Part shown: positions 5,655 to 57,068 of the stretch, piece by piece
Layout: each line of letters opens with the position of its first letter
How positions within the stretch are numbered: the stretch's first letter is position 1
Assembly (NCBI GenBank): GCA_964601305.1
Contig: CAZRMW010000001.1
Coordinates: 135,450-199,449 of the forward strand
DNA: 64,000 nucleotides
Source of the DNA: an uncultured Candidatus Saccharibacteria bacterium
Lineage (GTDB): Bacteria; Patescibacteriota; Minisyncoccia; JAHISW01; Tagabacteraceae
Direction of reading: 5' to 3'
The notes under the pieces: model-generated
The model's input: the letters and a program-made list of their open reading frames with translations, nothing else
Told to the model about the DNA's origin: nothing
Database searches by the model: none
Program-made: the position numbers and the translations under genes

Positions 5655-7015
5655 TAAAGATTCTTTTTATTAGCTAGTGGATCTTTTTTGAAATAATCAC
5701 CATAAAACACCTTGGACGCTTGCCTACTTCCTCCTTTGCATTTAGAAACAAAAAAACATTTTTTGCATTCTTCTGGCAAATAATTTAAACTGCGGATTTT
5801 TTTTAGAAATTTATTTTTCCATACTTTTAGCACACTTGAAGTATCTCCTAAATTTTCATCGATAAAATAATGTGGTTTGTAAAACCCTCTCGGATCGACA
5901 ACAATTCTTGAATGTCCGTCGTCGGCAGTTGCGCCAACAGAAATACTACTCAATTTATTTGTATCTTTAATTGCACAAAAAGGAAGAGAGTTAGCTAAAG
6001 CAATAGGCATATCTAGTGTTTTTCTTATTTTAAAAATTTTTTCTACAAAAACTTTTACTAATTTAGAGTCTAAGATATTTTCTCCCGATATAGGAATTGG
6101 CCTATAAAACTCCCACTCATCAATGGGAAGTTTTTCAATAAAATCAGCCATATTTTCAAGATTTAAAATATTTTCTTTTGTAAGCACTGTGCCAACACGA
6201 ACAGTTTTTATTCCACTTTCTTTCAAAAATTTTATAGAGATTTCTTTCTTTTTTAAAACCCCTTTTCCTCCTGTAATTATATCCTCTTTTTGGGGTAAAT
6301 AATTTTCTATTGGGATTAAAATGTTGTCGACAAGTTTTGCTAAATTGTCTGCCATGGCTTTGTTTACCAAAATTCCATTTGTGTTTAGCCTTACTTCATC
6401 AAATCCCCTATTTTTTGCATACTTAAGAATTTTAAAAATATCTTTTCGTAAAAGAGGCTCCCCTCCAGTAAACCTGACTGTTTTTATTTTTGAACTATAG
6501 ACATCGTCTATAATTTTTTTTGTTTTCTCAAAACCCAACCGGGGAGACTTTTCTCTTCCACAAGAGGCAAAGGAAATTTTATTAAAACAAAAATTACACC
6601 TTAGATTACACTTTGGCTCTATTTCTATCATTACTTCTGTAGGTAAATCCAAAATAGGACTAAAGCCATTCTCCCTATAGTATTTCAAGTATCCCTTCGG
6701 GAATCCTCCACAAGATTTGTCCCACTTACATTTTTTGCAACTTTTCCCTTTATCTCCAGAAAAATTATCAAAAACGATATGGTCAAGAGAATTTGAAGAA
6801 ACCAAGCAATATGGAAAATTCTTTAAAATAATTTTTATCTTGCTTTCATATTTATTTAAAAGATTGTAAATAGATTCGAGAAGTTCTGGAAAAGACGGTA
6901 AATCAAGCAAGTTTTCTGCCAAAATAATTTCTAAGTTTTCTGATCTACTTTCAACAGCAATCTTCGCCAAAGAATCTATTGTTGAATAGTTTTGTTTGTC
7001 TATTTTATATTTCAT
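5654..7015 (-). CDS. Radical SAM protein with an extra N-terminal domain carrying the family CxxCx5CGG motif
   Basis: N-terminal CKKCKWDKSCGGFPKGY, central CNLRCNFC, FTGGEPLL, C-terminal CKKCFFVSKCKGG. Confidence 0.75.
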   Translation of the reverse strand: MKYKIDKQNYSTIDSLAKIAVESRSENLEIILAENLLDLPSFPELLESIYNLLNKYESKIKIILKNFPYCLVSSNSLDHIVFDNFSGDKGKSCKKCKWDKSCGGFPKGYLKYYRENGFSPILDLPTEVMIEIEPKCNLRCNFCFNKISFASCGREKSPRLGFEKTKKIIDDVYSSKIKTVRFTGGEPLLRKDIFKILKYAKNRGFDEVRLNTNGILVNKAMADNLAKLVDNILIPIENYLPQKEDIITGGKGVLKKKEISIKFLKESGIKTVRVGTVLTKENILNLENMADFIEKLPIDEWEFYRPIPISGENILDSKLVKVFVEKIFKIRKTLDMPIALANSLPFCAIKDTNKLSSISVGATADDGHSRIVVDPRGFYKPHYFIDENLGDTSSVLKVWKNKFLKKIRSLNYLPEECKKCFFVSKCKGGSRQASKVFYGDYFKKDPLANKKNL

Positions 7016-16197: not shown

Positions 16198-17109
16198 CTA
16201 CTCAATCTCACACAACAAACCTAAAAAAACACTTAAATGTTCCGTCTCGCAATAATCTCCCTTGATGTATTCTTCGTATTCTTTTATCCTTAAAATTTCG
16301 TCATTGCATACTATTTCTGAAGTTCCCATATTTTTACAAACTAGACGAGAAAAATCTTCACCTAAAGATCTATAGGCATAAGCAATTCTAATACCAGTCT
16401 GCACCTCTCTTATTTTTTTATTTTCTACCAAAGGCCCTATGCCCTCTATCGCTTTGAGTGCTTCACCTTCTTCTAGCCCGGAAAAACTCTTTGCAACGTC
16501 ACAAATATTATCACATTTCTTCGGAAATCCACTAGGAGTAGTGTCCAAAGAATTTAATCCATCCTCACATCTTTTTGTTAAAAGACTACAAGTATCTTCG
16601 TTTAAATCTTCTACTGTGGCTAAAACAAGTATAAGTTTATTAAAACCTTCTCTTTCTTCTAATTTTTCCAGATATGTTTTTTTTGATTCATCAGCAGTAT
16701 CTTCTTGATAATTTATATTTTCAATAAAATTTTTAGCTCTATTATAAAAATCTTCATCATTAGGATTTGCAAGAGATTTACATATTAAATATCTTCTAAG
16801 TTTACCGACAGCCAAAGACATTCTGTCTAATTCAAATGTAGTATTTCTAAAAACAATGTTGTTAACCTTAAAATCCAAGCTTTTGTCTGATTCTTTTAGA
16901 TTTGCTAATTTTTCTATCAACTCATCGTCTGATAAATTTTTAGATTCTTCTAAACATTTTGCTTTTACCGCTTCTGATGAAATATGGTGTTGGTCTCTAC
17001 TAAAAAACCAAAAAGCCACAGCTAATAAAATCAAAACAACTGCTGTAAATATTATTGAAAATTTTTTATTTTGTAGCATTTGAAAAATTAATAAGCCGGA
17101 CTCATACAC
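16198..17109 (-). CDS. Membrane-anchored Cys-rich hypothetical protein
   Basis: N-terminal TM segment (FSIIFTAVVLILLAVAFWFF) and many Cys residues. Probable start at M11, which removes the overlap with the precursor gene. Confidence 0.5.
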   Translation of the reverse strand: MYESGLLIFQMLQNKKFSIIFTAVVLILLAVAFWFFSRDQHHISSEAVKAKCLEESKNLSDDELIEKLANLKESDKSLDFKVNNIVFRNTTFELDRMSLAVGKLRRYLICKSLANPNDEDFYNRAKNFIENINYQEDTADESKKTYLEKLEEREGFNKLILVLATVEDLNEDTCSLLTKRCEDGLNSLDTTPSGFPKKCDNICDVAKSFSGLEEGEALKAIEGIGPLVENKKIREVQTGIRIAYAYRSLGEDFSRLVCKNMGTSEIVCNDEILRIKEYEEYIKGDYCETEHLSVFLGLLCEIE

Positions 17110-17570
17110 CCGCCACCACTACAACACGCAAAACAAACACAAGCATTTGAATGGTTTGCATGAGAACTATGTGAACCATGGCTACCGTGTGATCCATGAC
17201 TACCGTGACGGCCGTGACTACCGTGAGACCCATGCGATCCATGCGAACCATGAGATCCGTGACTACCATGCGATCCGTGACTACCATGCGATCCGTGACT
17301 GCCGTGAGAACCATGTGAGCCATGAGAACCGTGAGACCCATGCGAGCCATGCGAACCGTGAGACCCGTGGCTACCGTGTGATGCATGAGAACAATCAGCC
17401 GAACTTGTATTTGGCTTCATCGCCCCCGAAAGCACAACACCCAAAGACAGCACCCCCATAGCAATTTTGGCAGCACTTTTTTTATTTATTCTACCCTCTT
17501 CACTATTTAAAAAAGCTTTTATATCTTTTTTAATTTGAGGAAATTTTTCTTCCGATTTCTTTTTGGCCAT
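17088..17570 (-). CDS. His-Xaa-Ser repeat (HxsA-like) precursor-type protein: leader/TM-like N-terminus, 27 S-H-G-type triplets, Cys-rich tail CVCFACCSGGGC
   Basis: Translation MAKKKSEEKF...SSADC-SHA-(SHG)19-RHG-(SHG)3-SHS-SHA-NHS-NACVCFACCSGGGCMSPAY. A rSAM/SPASM gene sits directly upstream. Confidence 0.8.
   Translation of the reverse strand: MAKKKSEEKFPQIKKDIKAFLNSEEGRINKKSAAKIAMGVLSLGVVLSGAMKPNTSSADCSHASHGSHGSHGSHGSHGSHGSHGSHGSHGSHGSHGSHGSHGSHGSHGSHGSHGSHGSHGRHGSHGSHGSHGSHSSHANHSNACVCFACCSGGGCMSPAY
17148..17390 (-). repeat. 9-bp-periodic coding tandem repeat encoding Ser-His-Gly triplets
   Basis: catgNccgtgNNtaccgtg-type periodicity with varied codons (synonymous heterogeneity), so not a recent slippage array. 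Confidence 0.85.
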
Positions 17571-34861: not shown

Positions 34862-36532
34862 ATGAAAATTTCTAACAAGGTAAAAATAATCCCACTTGGT
34901 GGAGTGGAAGAAATCGGTCGCAATATGACAGTAATAGAATACGGAAACGACATCGTTGTTGTCGATGCTGGTTTTCAATTTCCCGAAGCAGAAACTCCTG
35001 GCATAGATTATATTTTGCCAAACACAGAGTATCTACAAAAAAACAAACACAAAATCCGCGGGCTAATAATTAGCCACGGACACTTAGACCATATTGGCGC
35101 CATTCCATACATAATGGATAAAATTGGCAACCCTACTATTTACACAACTAGACTTACAAAAGCTATGGTACTTAAACGCCAAGAAGAATTTCCACATGTA
35201 CCAAAACTGATTATAAAAGAAATAAAATCTGGAGATAGAATTAGGCTTGGGAACCTAAAAGCAAAATTTTTCGATATTACTCACACCATTCCAGATGCAA
35301 TAGGTACAATAATAGAAACCCCTCTAGGAAATGTTGTTTATCCGGGTGATGCAAAAATAGAGCACAATAGTCGTGGACAAATTTCTAAAACAGAGGCCTA
35401 TCAAAAACTAGGCAAAGAAAAAAACTTGGTTCTACTTTTAGAAAGCACCAACTCTGAAAAGCCTGGCTTTTCAATGACAGAAGACACCGTAAAGAAAAAC
35501 TTGGAAAAAGTTTTTAAAGAAGCTCCAAAAAGAATTATCGTTGGAACATTTTCTTCTCAGCTTGAAAGAATAATAGAGATTATAAAAATCGCCCAGAAGC
35601 TAAAAAAGAAAGTCGCTATCGACGGATTTAGTATGAAATCCAACATTGAAATTGCCAAAAAACTAGAACTTTTTAAGCCTAAAAAAGATACTATAATACC
35701 CATAAAAAACATTGACGATTATCCAGACGAAAGAATTATTATAGTGTGCACAGGCGCGCAAGGAGAAAAAAACGCTTCACTTATGCGCATAGCAAGTAAA
35801 AAACATGCACATATAAACTTAAAGTCTAGAGATACTGTAGTACTTTCTTCTTCCATTATTCCTGGAAATGAAAAGAGTATTCAAAACCTAAAAGATAATC
35901 TTGCAAGGCAAGACGCTAAAGTAATTCACTACGAAGTGGCCGACATCCATGCTAGTGGGCACGCATATGCTGAAGAATTAAAAATAATTACAAAGCTTAT
36001 AAAACCAAAATTTTTAGTGCCAGTGCATGGACACTTCTTTATGCTAAAAACAAATGCCCTTTTGGGAGAATCCGTAGGTATACCCAAAGCAAACATAGAA
36101 GTACCTATGAAAAACGGAGTAATAATAGAAACTGACGGCAAAAAAATAAGCACCAGAAAAGAAACAGTACCGGCAAACTATGTTATGGTAGACGGGCTTG
36201 GCGTTGGCGATGTACGAGAAGTGGTGCTTAGGGACAGGCAAATGCTCGCCAAAGACGGAATTTTCGTAATCATCGCCGTAATAGATACCAAAGCCAGAAA
36301 AGTGCTTGGCTCTCCAGATATTATTTCTCGTGGCTTTGTTTATCTAAAAGAATCTCAAGATTTATTAAAAAAAGCTCGGTTTATTGTGAAAAAAATTGTT
36401 GGCGAATCTGCGCAAATGAGCCCAATGAATATTACGTTTGTAAAAGACAATATTCGTGAACGAATTGGCAAATACCTTTTCCAAAAAACAAAAAGACGAC
36501 CGATGGTCTTACCGGTCGTCATTGAGATCTAA
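34862..36532 (+). CDS. rnj: Ribonuclease J
   Basis: Metallo-beta-lactamase HxHxDH (ISHGHLDHIG), beta-CASP region and RNase J C-terminal domain. 556 aa. Confidence 0.9.
   Translation: MKISNKVKIIPLGGVEEIGRNMTVIEYGNDIVVVDAGFQFPEAETPGIDYILPNTEYLQKNKHKIRGLIISHGHLDHIGAIPYIMDKIGNPTIYTTRLTKAMVLKRQEEFPHVPKLIIKEIKSGDRIRLGNLKAKFFDITHTIPDAIGTIIETPLGNVVYPGDAKIEHNSRGQISKTEAYQKLGKEKNLVLLLESTNSEKPGFSMTEDTVKKNLEKVFKEAPKRIIVGTFSSQLERIIEIIKIAQKLKKKVAIDGFSMKSNIEIAKKLELFKPKKDTIIPIKNIDDYPDERIIIVCTGAQGEKNASLMRIASKKHAHINLKSRDTVVLSSSIIPGNEKSIQNLKDNLARQDAKVIHYEVADIHASGHAYAEELKIITKLIKPKFLVPVHGHFFMLKTNALLGESVGIPKANIEVPMKNGVIIETDGKKISTRKETVPANYVMVDGLGVGDVREVVLRDRQMLAKDGIFVIIAVIDTKARKVLGSPDIISRGFVYLKESQDLLKKARFIVKKIVGESAQMSPMNITFVKDNIRERIGKYLFQKTKRRPMVLPVVIEI
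36483..36520 (-). terminator. Terminator of the DUF378 gene, overlapping the rnj 3' coding end; copy 1 of a duplicated terminator module
   Basis: GACGACCGG-loop-CCGGTCGTC followed by UUUUUGUUUUUUU on the minus strand. Confidence 0.65.
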
Positions 36533-36590
36533 AATATAAACGGCCCTCGACTTTGTGTCGGGACCATTTATATTTTTACTATAAAAAACT

Positions 36591-36867: not shown

Positions 36868-36904
36868 GAAAACAAAAAGACGACCGATGGTACTCCCGGT
36901 CGTC
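36868..36904 (-). terminator. Terminator of 36918..37415; copy 2 of the duplicated module
   Basis: GACGACCGGGAGUACCAUCGGUCGUC followed by UUUUUGUUUUCC. Confidence 0.7.
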
Positions 36905-36917
36905 ATAGAAATTTAAA

Positions 36918-37415
36918 CTAGAAAGATCCCTTCGGGCCTTTTGGTATTTCTGTCCAGGCTGTTACCTCAATCCGATGCTTAGTGGTTTTTCTAAAAATTC
37001 CTGTCGAAATTTTTGCTTCCCAAAAACGTGGTTTTATAGTCGCATTAAACCTTCTTATCCACCAAGTACCCTGTTCTACAAAAAAACGAGCTTGCTCAGG
37101 AATCACTGATTCTCTACTTTCGTCATCCCAAATAAGTTTTACTAGTAGCATTCGCTCATGCTTCGGAGGTTCTTTTGGGTCTCTCCAATCAATATGCTCC
37201 CGGAAATTTTCTCGTCTTTCTTTTTCGGCTTTTAAAGCAACTAAATCGTCGTCAAGAGCCTTTATGTACAAACGTTCATAACCTTGATCTTTGGCTGATT
37301 TCAAATCTTTTCTAGCAATATTTAAGTTCTTTTGTTGTATTTCAATAAATTCCTCTAACTCACTATCAGAAATCTCTTTCAAATTTTCGACATCAGAAAA
37401 TGTTACTTGACTCAT
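36918..37415 (-). CDS. Hypothetical protein, paralog of 38113..38625 (shared EKERRENFRE.IDW...KGPKGSF)
   Basis: Pairwise similarity visible across the full length. Confidence 0.5.
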   Translation of the reverse strand: MSQVTFSDVENLKEISDSELEEFIEIQQKNLNIARKDLKSAKDQGYERLYIKALDDDLVALKAEKERRENFREHIDWRDPKEPPKHERMLLVKLIWDDESRESVIPEQARFFVEQGTWWIRRFNATIKPRFWEAKISTGIFRKTTKHRIEVTAWTEIPKGPKGSF

Positions 37416-37998: not shown

Positions 37999-38038
37999 AA
38001 AATGCCAAACTCTTACGATCGTATGAGTATGGCGAATT
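37999..38038. repeat. 40-nt imperfect palindromic element (ATGCCA...CTTACGATCGTATGAG.ATGGCGAA), copy 1
   Basis: Near-identical to 56924..56966. Confidence 0.6.
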
Positions 38039-38112
38039 AGAAAACTTGAAAAACAAAGTAAAAAATAAATTTAAACGCCTCAGTCGACTGAGGCGTTTGT
38101 TTTTTAGTTTTG

Positions 38113-39036: not shown

Positions 39037-39834
39037 TTATTTTCCTTCGTAATGCTCGAGTAAAAATTCTACTAAAATTTCACCTCCAAGTTGACCCTTG
39101 CTTCTTGCCCCGCCCGGCGGGGTTGGTTCTATAAAATACTCCGACTCTACTCTATCTTTGTTTACCGTTATACCCTTGCCCACTTGAAGCATTTCTGCAT
39201 CATTATAGTTGTTGCCCGTGGTCATAATTTGTTTTGGCTCTATGTTTAACTGCTTAGCTAAATTTTTTATTCCCATCCCTTTGTTTGTTTTTTTGCTTCC
39301 TATATCGTACCCTTCATTTGTCCAAAGACAGTAAAGCTCTCCTTCTCCAACCTCTTCCACCAATTTACAAATTTCTTCCATTTCATCACAATGAACCGTA
39401 AGCACAAAAAGTTTTGGTTCAAACCCTCTTATCCTGCTGTCCATCTTTTTCATTTCTTTTATTTTTTCTTTAAGAACTCTCAATTTATTAAAATATTCAT
39501 CGCTATAAACTTCGTGAGTAATTCTGTTATCAAGCCAAGTGATATTTCCATTCTCTGCTTGCAAAATCGTTTCTTTGTCAGAAAATCTATTTGTTAAACT
39601 TTTTAGATACAAAATATTTCTACCAGATGAAAAGTTTAAACGCACATATTTTTCTAGCTTGTTTAAATTTTCTACAAATTTATCTGAAAGCTGCTTAGAC
39701 TCCATAAAAAGCTTAGAGCCATCATCCTCCTCTCTAATTTCTGTACCAACAGGAGCTATCACTCCATCGATATCAAAAGTAACTACTTTTATATTGTCTA
39801 ATTCTTCTTTAGTTATTTCTTCTAGTTTTTTCAT
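39037..39834 (-). CDS. HAD-superfamily hydrolase (Cof/IIB-like)
   Basis: VVTFDIDGVI (DxD), TGNNYNDAEML (motif IV). The C-terminus carries an in-frame GC-rich repeat (PPGGARSKG). Confidence 0.7.
   Translation of the reverse strand: MKKLEEITKEELDNIKVVTFDIDGVIAPVGTEIREEDDGSKLFMESKQLSDKFVENLNKLEKYVRLNFSSGRNILYLKSLTNRFSDKETILQAENGNITWLDNRITHEVYSDEYFNKLRVLKEKIKEMKKMDSRIRGFEPKLFVLTVHCDEMEEICKLVEEVGEGELYCLWTNEGYDIGSKKTNKGMGIKNLAKQLNIEPKQIMTTGNNYNDAEMLQVGKGITVNKDRVESEYFIEPTPPGGARSKGQLGGEILVEFLLEHYEGK
39104..39125. repeat. GC-hairpin family member CTTGCCCCGCCCGGCGGGG inside the 3' end of the HAD CDS
   Basis: One loop substitution relative to 27290. Confidence 0.55.
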
Positions 39835-39951
39835 CCCGTACGAAATAGAGAATCAAAGATTCTCGTTTATTAATCTAATAATTTTATAATAAAAAATAAT
39901 TTTTCTTGTTTTTTGTTTTTATCTATCTAAATCCCGGATTTCGTACGGGAT
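39833..39951. mobile_element. MITE-like element (~119 bp) with 14-bp TIRs ATCCCGTACGAAAT/ATTTCGTACGGGAT, copy 1
   Basis: Two copies share the TIRs and an internal GAGAATC-ARA-GATTCTC hairpin. The end abuts the ATG of 39037..39834. Confidence 0.6.
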
Positions 39952-40008
39952 TCATGTGTTTATTTTTTTGGTTTTGTTAAATTACAATATTTAGTATATC
40001 ATACTGTT

Positions 40009-41103
40009 ATGAAAATCGGTATTGTAGGCCTACCAAACGTAGGCAAATCCACACTTTTTAAAGCACTAACAAAAATACAGGTAGATATAAACAACTACCC
40101 GTTTTGTACTATTGAACCAAATACAGGTATCGTTGAGGTGCCCGACGAAAGAATAGACAATCTTGCCAAACTTTCTAACTCCAAGAAAAAAATCTATGCC
40201 ACAATAGAGTTTGTAGACATTGCAGGAATTATAGAAGGAGCCAGCGAAGGTCAGGGACTTGGAAACAAATTTCTTCACAATATCCGCGAAGTAGATGCTA
40301 TAGCCCAAGTAGTGCGTGCTTTTAGAAATAAAAATATTACTCATGTACGAGACGAAGTAAATCCAGAAAAAGACATTGAAATTATAAACACCGAGCTTAT
40401 TTTGGCCGACATGGAAACAGTTTTAAAAAGAATTCCAAAACTAGAAAAAGAGGCCCGGGCACTAGATAAAACCGCTATCAAGCAATTAGAACTCGTCAAG
40501 CAACTCGAAAAAATATTAAACGAAAATAGTATGAAAAAAGTGAAAGAATTTATAAATTCTTTGGGAGAAGACCCCGCCGAGCGGGGCAAGCTTGAATTAA
40601 TTAAAGACCTTCACTTACTTTCTTTTAAACCAATCTTGTATGTAGTAAATGGGAGTAATTCGGGGGAAAAAATTGAAGGACTCGATAACAAAAACAGCCT
40701 CGTGCTAGATATAAAAACTGAGGAGGATTTGCTTGAATTATCAAACGAAGAACAACAAGAACTAGAATTAAAATCTCATCTATCAAAACTAATTACAAAA
40801 AGCTATGAGCTATTAGGGCTTATGACCTTTCTCACAACTGGAGAGGACGAGACGCGGGCATGGACCGTACCTATAAGCTCTGCGGCCCCGCGAGCTGGGC
40901 GCGCTATTCATGGAGATTTTGAAGAAAAATTTATCCGCGCTGATATCATCAACTACACCACTCTCCTCTCATCTGTGGGAAGCTCAACTTCCCACAGAGA
41001 TGATGTCAACCCTATGGCAAACGCCCGCGAAAAAGGCCTCATAAAAACCGTTGGTAAAGACTATATAGTCCAAAACGGCGACATAATAGAGTTTAGGATA
41101 TAA
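40009..41103 (+). CDS. ychF: Ribosome-binding ATPase YchF (Obg-like ATPase)
   Basis: MKIGIVGLPNVGKSTLF, TGS/C-terminal AWTV...IHGDFE...GKDYIVQNGD. Contains in-frame REP (SVGSSTSHR) and GC-hairpin (DPAERGK) segments. Confidence 0.9.
   Translation: MKIGIVGLPNVGKSTLFKALTKIQVDINNYPFCTIEPNTGIVEVPDERIDNLAKLSNSKKKIYATIEFVDIAGIIEGASEGQGLGNKFLHNIREVDAIAQVVRAFRNKNITHVRDEVNPEKDIEIINTELILADMETVLKRIPKLEKEARALDKTAIKQLELVKQLEKILNENSMKKVKEFINSLGEDPAERGKLELIKDLHLLSFKPILYVVNGSNSGEKIEGLDNKNSLVLDIKTEEDLLELSNEEQQELELKSHLSKLITKSYELLGLMTFLTTGEDETRAWTVPISSAAPRAGRAIHGDFEEKFIRADIINYTTLLSSVGSSTSHRDDVNPMANAREKGLIKTVGKDYIVQNGDIIEFRI
40571..40590. repeat. GC-rich hairpin repeat CCCCGCCGAGCGGGGCAAG (in-frame in ychF)
   Basis: Identical 19-mer to the reverse complement of 27290..27310. 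Confidence 0.6.
40972..40998. repeat. 27-bp REP palindrome TCTGTGGGAAGCTCAACTTCCCACAGA (in-frame in ychF)
   Basis: One mismatch to the copies at 42160 and 42395. Confidence 0.7.
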
Positions 41104-41149
41104 AAACTGGTAAACAAAAACTTTGCTTACCAGTTTCAAACAACTCTTT

Positions 41150-41584
41150 TTATTTTTTCTTTGTCAAAAACAAACAATTCTCAGTCCATTCTATTGTTTG
41201 TATCTCAAGCGAGTTTATTATTTTTTCTACAATTTCTCCGTCTTCTATGTTAAACACATGAGCACAAAGCTCTCCATCTTTATTCAAAAAAATAACAACG
41301 GGAAGATATTTAACAAAACTTGGAGATATTTCAAAAAAAACTTTTACCTCATTCAGACTAGCAGACATGAGAGACTTTTCTGCCATTTCTTTTGTAACTT
41401 TTTTTGTTGAGCTACCATCTTTTGTGGTAAATAAATGAAAATCACCACTCTCAAAACTGGGCGCCACCACCCCATCTTTAATGTTTAATTCACCACAATC
41501 TCTACAGTTTCTTAATAATTTTCCACATTCATCACAATACTCTGGTTTTACAGGTTTCATAAAATCTCCCTTTTTTATTTTCAA
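41150..41584 (-). CDS. Hypothetical protein with N-terminal zinc-ribbon (CDEC...CRDC)
   Basis: Probable start at MKPVKPEYCDEC. Confidence 0.4.
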   Translation of the reverse strand: MKIKKGDFMKPVKPEYCDECGKLLRNCRDCGELNIKDGVVAPSFESGDFHLFTTKDGSSTKKVTKEMAEKSLMSASLNEVKVFFEISPSFVKYLPVVIFLNKDGELCAHVFNIEDGEIVEKIINSLEIQTIEWTENCLFLTKKK

Positions 41585-41653
41585 CGATCAATGTTAGTTT
41601 ATAAAATAAAACCACAAAACCAAATTTTTTACAACACCACACACAAAATCTTC

Positions 41654-41682
41654 ATCTGTGCGACATCCGATGTCGCACAGAT
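41654..41682. repeat. REP-variant palindrome ATCTGTGCGACATCCGATGTCGCACAGAT, 3' of the RAYT gene
   Basis: Perfect 29-bp palindrome sharing the ATCTGTG...CACAGAT ends with the REP family. Confidence 0.65.
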
Positions 41683-41706
41683 ACCCTGTCAAGTTTTTAC
41701 ACCATC

Positions 41707-42387
41707 CTACTCTATTATAAATTCTCTAATTTCTTCGAAGGTGTTTTTTGCTTTGTTTTTATTTTTTTGGCAACTTTTTAAAAACTCATCGTACTCACTA
41801 AAGTTTTTACAATTTGTCCATTTATATTCTTCTAAAAACTTTTTTGCTTTTCTCCAATCTTTTAATCCACCATCTTTCCACCCTGGTTCAAATAAATCTA
41901 AGGGATTCATGTAAATATATTGTTTCAAATAATTTAAATATTCATCTCTATTAACCAAAATAGCCTTAAATCTTCCTTGGAAAAGAGACCCGCTTCTTTC
42001 ATATTTCTGATTAAAATAATTAGTATAACCAGTGCCAAGCTTTTGCATAAAACTAACAACCCCATTTTCTTCTACTTGTTCAAGTATCAAATGAAAATGA
42101 TTCGACATCAAACAAGAACAATGAATCTTAATTACTGGTTCCCTATCTTCTTTTTCTATTCTGTGGGAAGTTGAACTTCCCACAGATACAATACCGTTGC
42201 TCTTATTTATACGTCGAAATAAATTAATCGAAGAATTTTTGTCGTTAAAATCTCTCAACCCATAAAGAAACCTGTGGTAGTCTTCGTTATTCATAAAGAC
42301 TTTTCTCTTGTCTACTCCACGATTAAAAATATGATAAAAATGATTGTCTACAAATTGTGGTCTTTTCATTGTTTGTAGTATACACAT
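41707..42387 (-). CDS. REP-associated tyrosine transposase (RAYT; IS200/IS605-like Y1 HUH transposase)
   Basis: HFYHIFNRG...LMSNHFHLIL (HuH)...GTGYTNYFNQKYERSGSLFQGRFKAILV...YIYMNPL. Flanked by REP palindromes. A 27-bp REP lies in-frame at 42160-42186. Likely start at MKRPQF (42369). Confidence 0.75.
   Translation of the reverse strand: MCILQTMKRPQFVDNHFYHIFNRGVDKRKVFMNNEDYHRFLYGLRDFNDKNSSINLFRRINKSNGIVSVGSSTSHRIEKEDREPVIKIHCSCLMSNHFHLILEQVEENGVVSFMQKLGTGYTNYFNQKYERSGSLFQGRFKAILVNRDEYLNYLKQYIYMNPLDLFEPGWKDGGLKDWRKAKKFLEEYKWTNCKNFSEYDEFLKSCQKNKNKAKNTFEEIREFIIE
42160..42186. repeat. REP palindrome TCTGTGGGAAGTTGAACTTCCCACAGA (inside the RAYT CDS, in-frame)
   Basis: Exact reverse complement of the 42395..42421 copy. 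Confidence 0.75.
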
Positions 42388-42394
42388 TTTTTTA

Positions 42395-42421
42395 TCTGTG
42401 GGAAGTTCAACTTCCCACAGA
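42395..42421. repeat. REP palindrome TCTGTGGGAAGTTCAACTTCCCACAGA (between the RAYT start and rpsF)
   Basis: Perfect 11-bp arms. Confidence 0.75.
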
Positions 42422-42473
42422 TATATTGCATAATTTTGGAAAATTGGTAGTATATATCAGTAATACAAATATT

Positions 42474-42944
42474 ATGACAAAAGAAGAAAATTTATACGAA
42501 ATAGGTTATTTACTTAAATCAGACCTCAAAGATGAGGAGCTTTTAGCATTTTCTAATGAACTTAAGGAAGAAATTTCTAAAAAAAGTGGTTTGGTATTAT
42601 CCGAAGGAAGAAATAAGAGAGAAAACTTGTCTTACCCTATCTCAAAAGAAACTACTGCTTTTTTTAATTGGATAAAATTTAATCTTCCAAAAACCGATGT
42701 AATAAAAGAAATCTCTAGCCACTTAGAAAAACAAACAAGTGTTCTAAGATTTCTTACTATAAAATCTTCTGAAGAGGAAAAAATTAAGCCTTTTACTCCC
42801 AGAACTTTTATTAAAAAACCACGTCTTGATTCGAATAAAATTGAAAAAGAAGAAACAACCATCACAAAAAAGTCAGAGCCAATAAAAGAGAAGGTTAAGG
42901 AAGAGGAAATTGATAAAAAAATTGAGGAATTATTAGGAAAATAA
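42474..42944 (+). CDS. rpsF: 30S ribosomal protein S6 (with Lys/Glu-rich C-terminal extension)
   Basis: MTKEENLYEIGYLL... Gene order rpsF-ssb-rpsR. Confidence 0.7.
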   Translation: MTKEENLYEIGYLLKSDLKDEELLAFSNELKEEISKKSGLVLSEGRNKRENLSYPISKETTAFFNWIKFNLPKTDVIKEISSHLEKQTSVLRFLTIKSSEEEKIKPFTPRTFIKKPRLDSNKIEKEETTITKKSEPIKEKVKEEEIDKKIEELLGK

Positions 42945-42953
42945 ACAAAAAAT

Positions 42954-43406
42954 ATGAATTTAAACAAAGTTTTTATAATCGGTAGATTAACACAAGATCC
43001 GGAGATGAGAAATCTTCCTTCTGGTAAGCCTGTTGTTTCGTTTGGTCTTGCAACCAATAGAAATTGGACTAGTCAAAGTGGAGAAAAACAACAAGACACA
43101 CAATTTCACAATATTGTTTTGTTTGGACGTTTGGCAGAAATAGCTAGCCAGTATCTTAAAAAAGGAAGTATGGCTCTAATTGAGGGCCGAATACAAACGA
43201 GAAACTGGGAAGGCCAAGATGGAAATAAAAAATATAAAACAGAAATTATAGCCGAAAGACTTCAGATGGGTCCAAGAAGTGCAGGAAGCGCTAATTCAGC
43301 TCCATCAACAGCAAACAATTTTAACCAAAATAACAAGAAGGAAGAAACTCTAGATACAATCGAGTACCCTGAAGAAAACAATAATCCAGATAAAATTCCT
43401 TTTTAA
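42954..43406 (+). CDS. ssb: Single-stranded DNA-binding protein
   Basis: [19 protein letters not shown]...[20 protein letters not shown]...acidic tail DKIPF. Confidence 0.9.
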
Positions 43407-43426
43407 ATATTAACTTATTAAAACCT

Positions 43427-43630
43427 ATGACTAAGCAATGCTTTTTTTGCACAAACAATATAAAAAAAATAGACTATAAAGAGACAGATACTCTTAAAAA
43501 TTTTATTGATGCACAAGCAAAAATTCTTCCTAAAAGACAAACTCATTTGTGTATAAAACACCAAAAAAGACTCGCACTAGCTATAAAGAGAGCTCGGTTT
43601 TTAGCACTACTTCCTTTTGTTAAGAAGTAA
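43427..43630 (+). CDS. rpsR: 30S ribosomal protein S18
   Basis: [23 protein letters not shown]...[28 protein letters not shown]. Confidence 0.9.
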
Positions 43631-43641
43631 CGCTTTATAAT

Positions 43642-44646
43642 TTAGGAATTTTTTAACTCTTCTTTTATTTTTTTAGTAATTTCTTTAGCTACTCCTGTGT
43701 TTTCTTTTAAGAAAGCTCGGGCTTTTTCGTATCCAACACCTAGTTTAGTCTTACCATAAGAGTAAGAAGCTCCAGCTTTTTTGACTATTCCATACTTTTC
43801 TCCTAAATTAAGTATCTCGCCTGTATGAGAAATCCCTTCATTGTAAATAAGGTCAAACTCCGCAATCCTAAAGGGAGCAGCTGTTTTGTTTTTTACTACC
43901 TTAGCCCTGGTTCTGTTTCCAATTATCTGATCTCCTTTTTTGATTTGTGCAATTCTTCTTACATCTATCCTTACTGAAGAATAAAATTTTAGAGCTTTAC
44001 CTCCAGGAGTAGTTTCTGGACTCCCAAACATTACCCCAATCTTCATTCTAATTTGATTTATAAAGATAACTATTGTGTTTGATTTAGCAACTATGGAAGT
44101 AAGTTTTCTAAGTGCTTGAGACATTAGTCTAGCCTGCAAGCCTATATGCCTGTCGCCCATCTCTCCTTCTATTTCTGCCTTTGGTGTTAAGGCTGCCACA
44201 GAGTCCACCACTACCACATCTAATTTACCTGAACGTACCAAGCTTTCTGTAATCTCTAGTGCCTGTTCGCCTGTATCTGGCTGAGAAATAAGCAAATCTT
44301 TTACCTTTACACCTAATTTTTTGGCATACACAGGATCCATTGCATGTTCGGCATCTACAAATGCGCAAAGCCCTCCTTTCTTTTGAGCTTGAGCTACCAC
44401 ATGAAGAGCCAGTGTAGTTTTTCCAGAAGATTCTGGACCGTACACCTCCACTACCCTTCCTTTTGGAAGACCTCCTACACCAAGCGCAGCGTCAAGAGCT
44501 AACGACCCAGTAGGAATCGAGTCTACATGCACCTTTGGCACATCGCCAAGCTTCATTATTGCTCCCTCACCATATTTTGCTTTTAATCCCTCTAAAACAA
44601 TTTCTATGTCTTCTCCTGTTTTTTTAACCTTTTTTTCTTTTGCCAT
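43642..44646 (-). CDS. recA: Recombinase RecA
   Basis: [23 protein letters not shown]...[19 protein letters not shown]. Confidence 0.95.
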
Positions 44647-44647
44647 A

Positions 44648-44995
44648 TTATTTAAGTATTACTTTTAATTTTTTATGTACTTCTCTATCAAACTTGTCTT
44701 TGGCTAATAGCTCGATAATATTATAACCCTCTGCTAAAATCAAGCTCCCCTTAAAATTACCAGATGTATCGACAAGAATGCTTTTCCCATTTAAAAGCAA
44801 GAGGGAAACATTTTGAGCTTTTCCTTTAACTTCAATTAAAGATTCTTTTAAAACATCTCCATTTTGTGGAAATTCTACAACAATACGTGGTCCTAGTATA
44901 AAAAATCTAGCTTGATAAAAAAAATAAAAAATTAAAATCCCGGATATAATTATCAGTACAGAAAGTCTAATATAAAAAAGTGGTTTTGAATTCAT
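44648..44995 (-). CDS. Hypothetical membrane protein
   Basis: N-terminal TM segment. The start codon abuts MITE copy 2. Confidence 0.4.
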
Positions 44996-45113
44996 CCCGT
45001 ACGAAATAGAGAATCAGAGATTCTCGTTTGTTAGTCTAATAATTTGATAATTTATATTTTTTATTTTTCTACACATAAAAATGTTTATTAAAAGTCAGAA
45101 TTTCGTACGGGAT
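44994..45113. mobile_element. MITE-like element copy 2 (~120 bp; same TIRs and internal hairpin)
   Basis: See copy 1. Lies between the ftsK stop and the start of 44648..44995. Confidence 0.6.
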
Positions 45114-45119
45114 TCATTT

Positions 45120-47261
45120 TTAATATTCTTCACTTGGTTTTTCTACCAAAACATCTCTAGGCTTAGAACCATCTGCAGGTCCAACAACCCCCCTCTCTTC
45201 TAGCATATCTAAAAGACGCGCTGCTCTGGCATACCCCACACGCAATCTTCTTTGCAAATAAGAAGAAGACGCTTTGCCAGCAGCAATAACAATTTCTCTT
45301 GCCTCTTCATAAAGGTCGTCGCCATTCTCACCTGAATCTTCTAATGAACTATCGTCAAAAATAGATGTCTGTTGAGTTTCCCCACTCATACTAACTTCCT
45401 GCGAGTCATAATCTTCATATTCTTTTTTGAGAAAATCAACTACATTTCTTACTTCTTTCTCTGAAACAAAAGAGCCTTGAATACGCCTTGGTTTTGAAGA
45501 ATCACTAGACAAGAAAAGCATATCTCCATTACCCAGAAGTTTCTCTGCCCCAGACATATCCAAAATAGTCCTCGAATCAACCTGGGAAGCCACCTGAAAT
45601 GCTATACGCCCAGTAATATTGGCCTTAATTAGACCTGTAATAACATTTACGGAAGGTCTTTGTGTAGAAACAACTAGGTGTATCCCCACAGCTCTAGACA
45701 TCTGTGCAAGCCTTACAATAGAAGCCTCAAACTCTCTCGGATAAGTCGCCATAATATCTGCAAGCTCATCTATAACAATAACAATGTAAGGCATATCGTC
45801 TGGTCTTTTTTTGTGATAAGAATTAATATCTCTAGCTCCTACTTCAAGAAGAGCTTCGTACCTTCTTTCCATTTCTTTTGTCGCCCATTTAAGCGCCATT
45901 ATGGCTTTTTTTGCTTCTGTAATAACCGGAGTAAGTAAGTGGGGCAAATCGTTGTAAACATTAAGCTCTACTCTCTTTGGATCTACCAAAAGAAGCTGTA
46001 ATTCTTGCGGTGAATGCCTAAAAAGCAAACTCATCATAAGGCCGTGTATGGAAACAGATTTTCCAGAGCCAGTAGCTCCAGCTATAAGCAAATGTGGCAT
46101 TTTAACAATGGAAGAAAAAACAGATCTTCCAGCAACATTTTTACCAAGAGCGAGAAGCAAAGGAATTTCTTTATATTTTTTATTTGCCTCTTCAAGAAGT
46201 TTTTTAAGACCAACAACAGAAGAAGACCTATTTGGAACTTCTATCCCAACAAGAGATTTTCCAGGAATAGGGGCTTCTATCCTTATCGGGTGCGCAGCCA
46301 AGGCTAGAGATAAGTCGTTGTTTAGTGCAACTATTCTTGAAAGTTTCACCCCTTCTGCTGGCTTTATGGAATATTGAGTTACTGCAGGACCTATACAAAC
46401 TTCTGCTATTTCCACATTAATACCAAAATTTTGAAATGTTCTTCTTATTATATTAGAATTTGCCTTTATATCTCCTGCCGAAGGCTTACCTTTATCGCTC
46501 TGCAAGAGATCTAGGGGTGGTCCAGAAAAACTTTTGTTGCCAAAAAATTTGAGTGAACTTATTTTTGTACCTCTACCTTTAAAAAATCCCTCTTCTTTTG
46601 TTTCTTGTTTGCTGTTTGTTGTTTGTCCGTCTTCTGACGCTGTTTCTTGTTCGTATTCTTCATCTTCCTCTTCACCATCGTCTTCCTCTTGGTCTTCTAT
46701 CTCCTCACCTTCACTGTCGTCTTCAAATAGTTTTTGCTGTTTTGGCTTTCTTTTTAGAAAAGAGAAGGAAAGTGGCACATTAAACATTACCAAAAATCCG
46801 ATTAGTAAAATTATTATAAAAATTATTAAGGTGGCCCAAAAATCTACTAATTTTAAAAAAGGGAGAGAAATAAAATACCCCGCATACCCTCCTGTTTTTT
46901 CTCCAAAAAGAATTTCAGCAAGAGCTAAGCCACTTAAAAGTATTAAAAAGCCTCCTACCAAGTTAGAAGATAATAAATTTGGACGAAAAGAGGCAAATAA
47001 AGAAACTGCAGCTAAAACAAAAAGCAAAGGTATTAAAAACAATCCATCTCCAAACAGAAACTCTAAAACCATATAAGTATACCTACCTAAAAGGCCTGCC
47101 TTGCTAAATATAGCTAAAATAAAAAAGACGGAGAATCCAAGGGAGACAATGGCCCAAATAGAATGGGTTGTCTCTTTGTTTAGCCCGTGGTACCACCTTT
47201 CAATTACATCTCTTTCTTTGTTTTTTGTAATTTTTTTCTTCTTTGCAACCATACTACCCAT
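45120..47261 (-). CDS. ftsK: DNA translocase FtsK/SpoIIIE
   Basis: TM N-terminus, acidic linker, Walker A GATGSGKS, FtsK gamma-like C-terminus. Confidence 0.9.
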   Translation of the reverse strand: MGSMVAKKKKITKNKERDVIERWYHGLNKETTHSIWAIVSLGFSVFFILAIFSKAGLLGRYTYMVLEFLFGDGLFLIPLLFVLAAVSLFASFRPNLLSSNLVGGFLILLSGLALAEILFGEKTGGYAGYFISLPFLKLVDFWATLIIFIIILLIGFLVMFNVPLSFSFLKRKPKQQKLFEDDSEGEEIEDQEEDDGEEEDEEYEQETASEDGQTTNSKQETKEEGFFKGRGTKISSLKFFGNKSFSGPPLDLLQSDKGKPSAGDIKANSNIIRRTFQNFGINVEIAEVCIGPAVTQYSIKPAEGVKLSRIVALNNDLSLALAAHPIRIEAPIPGKSLVGIEVPNRSSSVVGLKKLLEEANKKYKEIPLLLALGKNVAGRSVFSSIVKMPHLLIAGATGSGKSVSIHGLMMSLLFRHSPQELQLLLVDPKRVELNVYNDLPHLLTPVITEAKKAIMALKWATKEMERRYEALLEVGARDINSYHKKRPDDMPYIVIVIDELADIMATYPREFEASIVRLAQMSRAVGIHLVVSTQRPSVNVITGLIKANITGRIAFQVASQVDSRTILDMSGAEKLLGNGDMLFLSSDSSKPRRIQGSFVSEKEVRNVVDFLKKEYEDYDSQEVSMSGETQQTSIFDDSSLEDSGENGDDLYEEAREIVIAAGKASSSYLQRRLRVGYARAARLLDMLEERGVVGPADGSKPRDVLVEKPSEEY

Positions 47262-55375: not shown

Positions 55376-55518
55376 TTTTTCCTCCTTTATCGTTTTGTTT
55401 TCAAACCTAAATCTAAACCAAAAATAGCACGCTTGGTACTATTTGTCTATAAAAACCGAAAACCGACATCGCCACGCCCGCCGCGCTTCGCTGGCGATAC
55501 GGGCAGGTAAGTCGGTTA

Positions 55519-55779
55519 TTAAGAATAAAGATTGCTATGAGTATCTATATCAACAAATTCAACTGAATCTCTGTCTAATATACTATAAATCGCCCGGAAA
55601 TCACCGGTAATGTTAATGCTTCTAAATATTTTAAATTTTCCACAAAGAGGATGGTTATTTAAAAAAGGATCGAAGGGATTTATTTCAAATAGTTTAAGTT
55701 TTTCATCAAATTTTCTCCGCTCTCGCAAGCGAAGTTTTTTGTACTTCTTTTTAAAAGATTTATGAAAATTTATATTCAT
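55519..55779 (-). CDS. RelE/ParE-superfamily toxin (YafQ-like), copy 1
   Basis: NNHPLCGKFKIFRSINITGDFRAIYSI...THSNLY fits the YafQ pattern hPLxGxWKGYRxxHIxxDWxLIY...TGTHxxL. Confidence 0.65.
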   Translation of the reverse strand: MNINFHKSFKKKYKKLRLRERRKFDEKLKLFEINPFDPFLNNHPLCGKFKIFRSINITGDFRAIYSILDRDSVEFVDIDTHSNLYS

Positions 55780-56062: not shown

Positions 56063-56134
56063 AATAACCTCAGTATATACCTAGGTTAAGTTTTGTCAAC
56101 ACGTACCATAAAAACCGACATCGTAAGTCGGTTG

Positions 56135-56395
56135 TTAAGAATAAAGATCGCTGTGAGAGCCAATATCAATAAATCTTACAATGTTGAAATCAATTTTGGT
56201 ATAAATAGCCCTTATATCACCAGTGATATTTATGCTTCTAAACTCAGACCACTTACCAGAAAGTGAATGATTTTTAAGTCGAGTGTCCATTGGGTCAATT
56301 AAAAATATTTCTAGCTGTCTAATTGTTTTATTTTTAATTTTTTGAGAAAATTTAGAAAAACTTTTCTCAAACTGTTTTGATAGTATATACTGCAT
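56135..56395 (-). CDS. RelE/ParE-superfamily toxin (YafQ-like), copy 2
   Basis: KNHSLSGKWSEFRSINITGDIRAIYTK...SHSDLYS. Confidence 0.65.
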   Translation of the reverse strand: MQYILSKQFEKSFSKFSQKIKNKTIRQLEIFLIDPMDTRLKNHSLSGKWSEFRSINITGDIRAIYTKIDFNIVRFIDIGSHSDLYS

Positions 56396-56923: not shown

Positions 56924-56966
56924 AAAATGCCATCTGCTTACGATCGTATGAGAATGGCGAAATTTA
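56924..56966. repeat. 40-nt palindromic element, copy 2 (see 37999..38038)
   Basis: AAAATGCCATCTGCTTACGATCGTATGAGAATGGCGAAATTT. Confidence 0.6.
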
Positions 56967-57068
56967 AAAATTGTAAAAAATTAAACTCTCCAGTTTAAAT
57001 CGAGATTTTTGTTGCCAAAAGTATGTATTTTAGGTATATTATATACGAGTCGAAGGAGTCTTTTTAAG

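Follow-up and report, generated by a model that had tools for sequence, protein, structure and literature searches.

A probable MITE-like hairpin element family at the start codons of Patescibacteria genes

We describe here two inverted-repeat elements in a stretch of 64,000 nucleotides from an uncultured Candidatus Saccharibacteria genome (GenBank assembly GCA_964601305.1, contig CAZRMW010000001.1, positions 135,450 to 199,449; hereafter the window, with a GC content of about 33%), each of which stands directly before a gene. An original prediction had proposed two copies of a 120-bp element resembling a MITE (a transposable element of the miniature inverted-repeat type), with 14-bp terminal inverted repeats (TIRs), and the pair is borne out: the 14-mer ATCCCGTACGAAAT occurs at exactly four sites in the window, 39833-39846(+), 39938-39951(-), 44994-45007(+) and 45100-45113(-), as two inverted pairs of exact arms that bound copy A and copy B, about 120 bp each. 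With up to three mismatches allowed, the window yielded one additional match, which carries 3 mismatches and is at chance level. The internal hairpin proposed for each copy is likewise present (7 bp at 39848-39864 and at 45009-45025), and both copies adjoin the ATG of a minus-strand gene (open reading frames 39037-39834 and 44648-44995). The first of these genes is a HAD hydrolase as predicted, whereas the second, which had been placed after recA, lies upstream of recA and downstream of ftsK. The features of the two loci are as follows.

39835..39949, minus strand: copy A element core, 115 nt, from the distal to the gene-proximal arm (exact 12-nt arms CCCGTACGAAAT / ATTTCGTACGGG)
39938..39951, minus strand: copy A distal (5' in gene orientation) 14-nt arm ATCCCGTACGAAAT, from the 14-mer search
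39950..39955, minus strand: copy A upstream start duplicate ATGAAT, the closing AT of which pairs with the AU of the true start codon
39848..39864, minus strand: copy A local 7-bp hairpin GAGAATC-TTT-GATTCTC, 1 nt 5' of the gene-proximal arm
39833..39846, minus strand: copy A gene-proximal 14-nt arm ATTTCGTACGGGAT, whose last 2 bases are the AT of the HAD start (ATG 39834-39832)
39037..39834, minus strand: HAD-family hydrolase gene downstream of copy A (PF08282, E 6e-15)
44996..45111, minus strand: copy B element core, 116 nt
45100..45113, minus strand: copy B distal 14-nt arm, from the 14-mer search
45112..45117, minus strand: copy B upstream start duplicate ATGAAT; the ftsK stop codon (45120-45122) ends 2 nt before it
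45009..45025, minus strand: copy B local hairpin GAGAATC-TCT-GATTCTC
44994..45007, minus strand: copy B 14-nt arm on the gene side, whose final AT belongs to the start codon (ATG 44995-44993)
44648..44995, minus strand: gene of a 115-aa membrane protein (Glucodextran_B-like) downstream of copy B
43642-44646: recA, after a 1-nt gap from the 115-aa membrane protein gene
45120-47261: ftsK, upstream of the 115-aa membrane protein gene

On the minus strand, both copies have the layout 5'-ATGAAT-CCCGTACGAAAT-(AT-rich, variable)-GAGAATC-loop-GATTCTC-T-ATTTCGTACGGG-ATGAAx-gene, and in both the AT of the real start codon is part of the 14-bp inverted repeat. The second ATGAAT that precedes the distal end is a direct duplication of the first bases of the gene; it matches ATGAAA at 39834-39829 in copy A and is identical to ATGAAT at 44995-44990 in copy B. 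A check for target-site duplications, which the original prediction had called for, thus finds ATGNA(T) on both sides of each copy, as ATGAAT/ATGAAA and ATGAAT/ATGAAT. The gene-side 78 nt are 85% identical between copy A and copy B; outside this segment the copies have diverged except for the distal arm, and their flanks are unrelated.

The family, its target duplication and its empty sites

A family scan with the pattern CCCGTACGAAAT-N75-105-ATTTCGTACGGG, restricted to one genome per species, recovered 98 more copies with the same 12-nt arms at 94 genome loci in 47 assemblies, which together with the window gives 100 copies of 98-122 nt; single assemblies yielded as many as 8 loci and as many as 8 copies. 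Nearly all carriers belong to the Patescibacteria/Paceibacterota, among them Nomura-, Zambryski-, Yanofsky-, Wolfe-, Niyogi-, Harrison- and Doudnabacteria, and the nearest homologues of the window HAD protein are annotated as Portnoybacteria, Nealsonbacteria or Patescibacteria. A few carrier metagenome-assembled genomes are titled Saccharibacteria, Nanoarchaeota or Gammaproteobacteria, yet they hold the same genes, and these titles probably reflect mislabelling or mis-binning. Such off-group titles occur at L024, L035, L080 and many loci with CAZ and CAY prefixes, on contigs that carry the element and Paceibacterota-like genes; residues 1-45 of SMC are identical in L024 and L037. Among 11 metagenome contigs of the window population, copy B is found in 6 and copy A in 5, all identical to the window, with no polymorphism at the strain level. 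No match to the element was found in viral contigs or, by blastn, in plasmid and phage collections. Metagenome scans for the window subfamily GATTCTCTATTTCGTACGGG and for the tandem junction returned nothing; an empty copy B site would read TAA-AA-ATGAATTCAAAA and a circle junction CGGGATGNATCCCG. The literature, as far as our incomplete coverage reaches, contains no account of the element sequence, or of MITEs, leaderless genes or inverted repeats in the Candidate Phyla Radiation (CPR). The family is widespread in Patescibacteria (CPR) and apparently undescribed.

When the copies are oriented by an internal rule, the T before the proximal arm, an ATG follows the proximal arm directly in 95 of 100 copies, with GTG in one more and a probable TTG in another. 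A second ATG lies 5-7 nt before the distal arm in 78 of the 100, as ATGNAT in 64 of these, and the variable fourth base is equal on both sides in 68 of 71 copies. The most economical parse would take the element as T-CCCG...CGGG-A with 13-bp arms, that is T-CCCGTACGAAAT ... ATTTCGTACGGG-A, and the target duplication as TGNA. The duplication is mostly 4 bp (range 3-5), and identity of the flanks spans 3-7 nt. The last A of the element and the duplicated TG regenerate an ATG at its end, and the old ATGNA stands at its other end. The gene has A as its fifth base in 90 of 95 cases, as against 31 of 71 ordinary window genes (p about 1e-26), and the target is therefore given as (A)TGNA. This duplication of the start codon, like the fixed orientation described below, was absent from the original prediction. 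The arm variants CCCGTTAGAAAT/ATTTCTAACGGG and CCCGTACGAAGT/ACTTCGTACGGG are changed on both arms and follow the same insertion rules.

Empty sites are found in relatives. In the closest syntenic relative, GCA_042577045, whose HAD and small proteins are 74% and 56% identical to those of the window, both window loci are empty. Its small gene begins 1 nt after the ftsK stop (ftsK-TAA-A-ATG) without any element, where the window at copy B reads TAA-AA-ATGAAT-[element]-ATGAAT. The ychF/HAD spacer measures 23 nt in GCA_042577045 and 34 nt in a second relative, compared with 174 nt in the window, and HAD relatives at 73-74% identity keep the synteny and have no element. Further pairs of filled and empty orthologs are seen for rplU, recR, ssb, tig and rplD, and the window's own ssb is an empty site. 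At L075 7455-7822 (Niyogibacteria PFCN01000030), three elements stand in tandem with exactly ATGAAT between them, which is the outcome expected of serial insertion into the same TGAA; one has arms of the CGTACG type and two of the GTTAG type, and a fourth copy lies at 6551-6669.

Several unusual forms were also encountered. Three identical 138-nt copies with doubled arms (L005 5022-5159; L016 489-626 and 1929-2066, JBBTUS01) read CCCGAACGAAAT-CGCGT-CCCGTACGAAAT ... ATTTCGTAGCGGG-ACT-ATTTCGTACGGG and resemble a nested or duplicated-end derivative. L086 7030-7330 has a complex arrangement that includes a 29-nt mini-hairpin of arms only (CCCGTACGAAAT-AGGAA-ATTTCGTACGGG) and a unit of about 210 nt with extended inverted repeats. 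A 65-nt short variant, CCCGTACTAAAT ... ATTTTAGTACTGGG-ATG, is kept in three genomes (L067 7552-7616, L072 6149-6213 and L090 at about 6116), and the one in L072 precedes an ortholog of the gene that has a full-length element in L064.

At least 95% of the copies stand at a start codon, against an expectation of at most about 43% (p about 1e-28), this being the share of surviving sites at gene starts in a window model of an ATGNA-specific element from which all coding insertions have been purged. Moreover, the gene adjoins the hairpin-proximal arm in 79 of 83 unambiguous copies and the other arm in none. The fixed orientation is notable because the arms are symmetric, and an ATG would be rebuilt whichever way the element was inserted.

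The presence of just two copies in the window, and of a palindromic core CGTACG in their arms, could be taken to mean chance similarity, a local segmental duplication or a promoter segment inverted by a recombinase at its flanks. We regard this as barely credible. Four exact occurrences of the 14-mer in the window compare with an expectation of about zero, and local duplication, which the original prediction had itself named as its alternative provided that no other copies existed, is contradicted by the unrelated flanks and by the 98 further copies elsewhere. An invertible segment is rejected on orientation, as no copy is flipped. A Xer/dif-like site was also considered and set aside: the element's arms share ATTTCG alone with some XerC arms and lack the conserved ATAA/TTAT inner ends of dif consensus sequences.

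A transposase gene does lie between the two window copies, at 41707-42387(-). It encodes a 226-aa IS200-like Y1 (RAYT-like) protein and has REP-like palindromes (TCTGTGGGAAGTT/AACTTCCCACAGA) around it.

40964-41000: REP-like palindrome
41654-41682: REP-like palindrome
42152-42188: REP-like palindrome
42387-42423: REP-like palindrome

Y1 homologues in L015, L051 and L061 have genome-specific palindromes of their own, and no Y1 gene is annotated in the syntenic ychF-S6 interval of the closest relative (L111). Mobilisation as a single strand by an HUH/Y1 enzyme would make the element either a REPIN moved by this RAYT-like protein or an IS200/IS605-type PATE. Such a model would suit the siting of a Y1_Tnp gene between the copies, the occurrence of homologues at 3 of the 94 genome loci, the hairpin formed by two inverted arms, the subterminal hairpin 13 nt from one end and the strict specificity for strand and orientation. 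It is nonetheless very unlikely: the palindromes beside each Y1 gene are unrelated to the element arms, HUH elements have neither a target duplication nor TIRs, and the variable base of the repeat tracks the gene, not the element subfamily. We accordingly rejected membership of the RAYT/REPIN systems on the palindromes, and an IS200/IS605-derived PATE on the presence of TIRs and duplications together with a conserved hairpin at the gene-proximal end only.

The element is thus an insertion bounded by TIRs, flanked by a direct duplication, short, non-coding and without a conserved reading frame, and present in dispersed copies with empty syntenic sites and tandem re-insertion, and the term MITE-like, as originally applied, suits its anatomy. 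We favor the reading, with a probability of about 0.6, that it represents a family of MITE-like, hairpin-forming mobile elements of about 99-122 nt that are non-coding, settle on start codons in one orientation and would there become part of the message.

RNA structure, the genes served and possible roles

Both window copies are predicted to fold as RNA into a 14-bp terminal helix and a 7-bp local hairpin, at -29.2 and -31.5 kcal/mol (z = -4.6 and -5.2 against shuffles). The consensus fold of 20 related copies likewise contains the 14-bp helix and a 7-bp hairpin, which a single U separates from the proximal arm; 5 base pairs of this fold show double changes. The local stem exists in four variants, all perfectly paired: GGAAATC/GATTTCC, GGAAATG/CATTTCC, GAGAATC/GATTCTC (the window copies) and GATCATC/GATGATC. 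The hairpin and its U stand 13 nt before the rebuilt ATG. Other subfamilies have RGGA...UCCU closing this position, or a terminal helix about 10 bp longer with a UCCU bulge. The 3' block of 16 nt, TCCTATTTCGTACGGG, is conserved, and a TACGGG partner often found near the CCCGTA of the distal arm makes alternative folds possible. In searches of the window with Rfam 15, tRNAs alone reached the gathering score, the best score on the element was 16 bits against a cut-off of 100, and permissive thresholds gave no match to it either.

The genes behind the elements are a functionally miscellaneous housekeeping set. They include the ribosomal proteins L4, L9, L15, L21, L22, L25, L7/L12 and S21, together with ssb (four times), smc, topA, uvrB, recR, secA, EF-G/LepA/TypA, RRF, RF2, trigger factor, GlyRS, HPF, def and ftsA; a regulon of a single function, such as SOS in view of recA, was rejected on this account. 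The original expression signals precede the old ATG. In about one third of copies these include a strong TATAAT 5-10 nt upstream of it, which implies leaderless transcripts that begin at the old ATG; in others there is a Shine-Dalgarno (SD) sequence or the stop codon of the upstream gene. Since the gene's own promoter, SD or upstream stop lies before the duplicated ATG, the element would be inside the transcript, as the first 120 nt or so of the message or as an intercistronic insert. The original prediction had it supply the 5' untranslated region or promoter-proximal sequence of its genes. The first part of that claim is a reasonable deduction from these positions, whereas a promoter found no support: no sigma-70-like site faces the gene within the element, and its TATTTC-N7-ATG geometry has neither the -7 T nor any -35. 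An intrinsic terminator was also discarded, the local hairpin with UAUUUCG being flagged weakly and symmetrically on both strands. In a related observation, ychF and the HAD gene are divergent and apparently leaderless, with overlapping -10 boxes TATGATATACT (window 39974-40011 and L107 2477-2503); the shared boxes lie within the relative's 23-nt spacer, and the window has 37 extra nt between the box and the old HAD ATG.

The copies show that the element inserts into (A)TGNA at a gene start, duplicates TGNA and rebuilds the ATG at its own end. We propose that the old promoter (in many cases a TATAAT 6-8 nt upstream, of the leaderless kind), SD or stop codon would remain before the old ATG and thereby turn the element into an mRNA leader. 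In the RNA, the 14-bp terminal helix may set the rebuilt AUG next to the old point of ribosome loading, and for leaderless genes this helix would leave 4 unpaired nt at the RNA 5' end. A 5' stem-loop near the end of an RNA stabilises messages in other bacteria. Copies at start codons may persist because the reading frame stays intact there and a folded insert is tolerated or useful, and copies elsewhere would vanish since a palindrome between direct repeats is readily excised. The (A)TGNA target, the sparing of the reading frame by insertion at the start and the rapid loss of unselected palindromes might thus combine to produce both the exclusivity and the fixed orientation. Alternatively, the exclusivity may come from true mechanistic targeting of initiation regions.

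How the rebuilt AUG is used bears on a second proposal. No SD precedes the rebuilt ATG in the element sequences. The ftsK > small gene > recA chain of the relative, with its 1-nt gaps, is broken in the window by copy B only, yet the population contigs keep identical copies, from which it follows that the rebuilt AUG must support initiation. The reading frame that starts at the old ATG runs for 6-52 codons without constraint on length or frame, and reaches its stop at a median of 70 nt before the rebuilt AUG. Coupling by termination and reinitiation from an upstream reading frame was rejected on that distance, and an N-terminal extension or coding insert on the uniform distribution, modulo 3, of the distance between the two AUGs. 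An initiation bypass or shunt, by which ribosomes would load at the old AUG (through the RNA 5' end, an SD or after an upstream stop codon) and cross the hairpin to the identical AUGNA at its 3' base, could make use of the identical take-off and landing sequences (AUGNA ... AUGNA), the retention of the old AUG with its loading signals, the lack of an SD before the rebuilt AUG, the interruption of the ftsK > 115-aa gene > recA coupling chain by the element alone and the compact 14-bp helix that begins 4 nt past the old AUG. We consider it improbable, in that about 20% of copies have no upstream ATG, the upstream reading frame is unconstrained and the target duplication fully accounts for the direct repeat.

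The main competing explanation is a cis-regulatory leader RNA of the host, a shared switch or protein-binding hairpin for which mobility was the way in which a regulon grew; it may be compatible in part with a mobile element. Two folds could gate the AUG, a long helix that buries its AU or two local hairpins that free UAUUUCGUACGGGAUG. Such a leader would agree with the invariance of the arms and the 16-nt block in 47 assemblies while the interiors are scrambled, with compensatory changes that preserve the local hairpin, with the decoy TACGGG near the distal-arm CCCGTA and with the strictly fixed orientation. It would also agree with features that sit uneasily with a mobile parasite. In ten ortholog pairs that share an element subfamily, regional identity was as follows.

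Old ATGNAT: 98% identity
20 nt before the proximal arm: 86% identity
Third codon positions: 62% identity
12 nt upstream (ungapped comparison): 52% identity

Perfect arms in 773 kb number 102 and 105, against 11 and 1 arms with one mismatch, and the imperfect ones lie mostly within doubled or variant elements; as perfect arms were the search criterion, part of this conservation is inflated, although the figures for flanks and hairpin are unaffected. On the other side, the genes served are miscellaneous, close relatives have the same genes without the element, tandem triplets are hard to square with a tuned switch, and Rfam gives no match. On balance, a host leader RNA seems to us possible and distinctly less likely than the MITE-like family.

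We nevertheless recognize that several observations weigh against the MITE-like family as we have drawn it. A duplication of variable length, with flank identity of 3-7 nt, is untidy for a single transposase, and no arm pairs more than 200 nt apart, as an autonomous element with its transposase would show, were found in the 773 kb. The arms are identical across very divergent genomes with almost no decayed copies, and the old ATGNAT is kept at 98% where third codon positions are at 62%; these features look more like selection at the level of the host, or very fast turnover, than like a passive parasite. Target preference and purifying selection do not fully explain the near-total absence of the element from neutral intergenic DNA. 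Moreover, the rebuilt AUG has no SD, yet translation from it appears to be needed for recA expression in the window. In a stronger version, which we hold to be rather unlikely, the element would be a start-codon-specific mobile leader that spreads onto ATGNA gene starts only and is invisible or useful there, either through an initiation shunt or bypass over the helix or because the helix and its competing local hairpins form a shared switch or processing site. In the latter case, common control would extend over dozens of Paceibacterota housekeeping genes, such as those for ribosomal proteins, ssb, topA and smc and the recA operon.

Other repeats are present in the window. Three families of two copies each, 52-63 nt long and 82-85% identical, are unrelated to the element.

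36485-36547 / 36869-36931: two-copy repeat
37999-38053 / 56924-56978: two-copy repeat
55507-55558 / 56123-56174: two-copy repeat

Two of these families contain hairpins, GACGACCG...CGGTCGTC and GCCA...TTACGATCGTA...TGGC. In addition, 17141-17410 is a tandem array with a 9-nt period and about 30 periods, within the open reading frame 17088-17570, which yields a 3-aa protein repeat; 18 overlapping copies of a 108-nt reference are listed there in register.

Significance and comparison with known systems

The genomes of CPR/Patescibacteria are tiny; few regulators can be recognised in them, and few of their mobile elements are known. In this setting, the family sits on the opening bases of genes that are essential and highly expressed, across dozens of species. 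A mechanistic origin of its specificity would point to a new way of choosing targets. With a selective origin, the hairpin would have to be compatible with, or helpful to, initiation without an SD, including leaderless initiation in a large share of copies, and the element would then amount to a natural and repeated experiment on the way in which these ribosomes locate start codons. In practical terms, gene callers and start predictors will be confronted at these genes with a decoy ATG and an apparently "intergenic" gap of 120 nt.

Discontinuous translation is known from the split ribosome-binding site of T4 gene 38, the bypass in T4 gene 60, the mitochondrial "byp" elements and the ribosome shunt of caulimoviruses; in the bypass systems the insert lies between identical codons, and byps are mobile in their own right. 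The element would resemble these signals in that a stable hairpin or insert separates the point where ribosomes load from the codon they read. It differs from them in that it lies at initiation and not within a reading frame and is about 115 nt long. With REPINs and PATEs it shares two inverted short repeats in a hairpin, specificity for strand and orientation and a subterminal hairpin, as well as the RAYT-like gene in the window; however, insertion of those elements produces no target duplication and is not directed at start codons, and the cognate palindromes of the window RAYT are different ones.

Neisseria REP2 and similar upstream repeats of Borrelia are 120-150 bp long, are fused to translational starts and have internal stem-loops (PMC3184786). 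Like them, the element stands directly upstream of many genes, at the translational start. REP2, however, lacks TIRs and brings its own promoter, ribosome-binding site and ATG, whereas our element has TIRs and a duplication, has no detectable promoter or SD and supplies only the A of the ATG; a REP2-type assignment was rejected on the grounds that the element has TIRs, no sigma-70-like site directed at the gene and no SD ahead of the rebuilt ATG.

Bacterial MITEs in general are about 100-150 bp long, have TIRs, no reading frame and a target duplication, are dispersed and co-transcribed, and form long stem-loops (PMC3184786). The element is like the Correia/NEMIS MITEs of Neisseria and the ERIC/IRU MITEs of enterobacteria in size, TIRs, duplication and a co-transcribed hairpin, co-transcription in our case being a deduction. 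Correia/NEMIS and ERIC/IRU occur in both orientations and enter TA sites or, loosely, intergenic DNA. Unlike these, the present family is found almost only at start codons and in one orientation, duplicates TGNA, rebuilds the ATG with its last base and has unrelated arms; we know of no other bacterial MITE with comparable specificity for start codons. By analogy, the closest working likeness would still be with MITEs of the Correia/ERIC type that are co-transcribed as hairpins.

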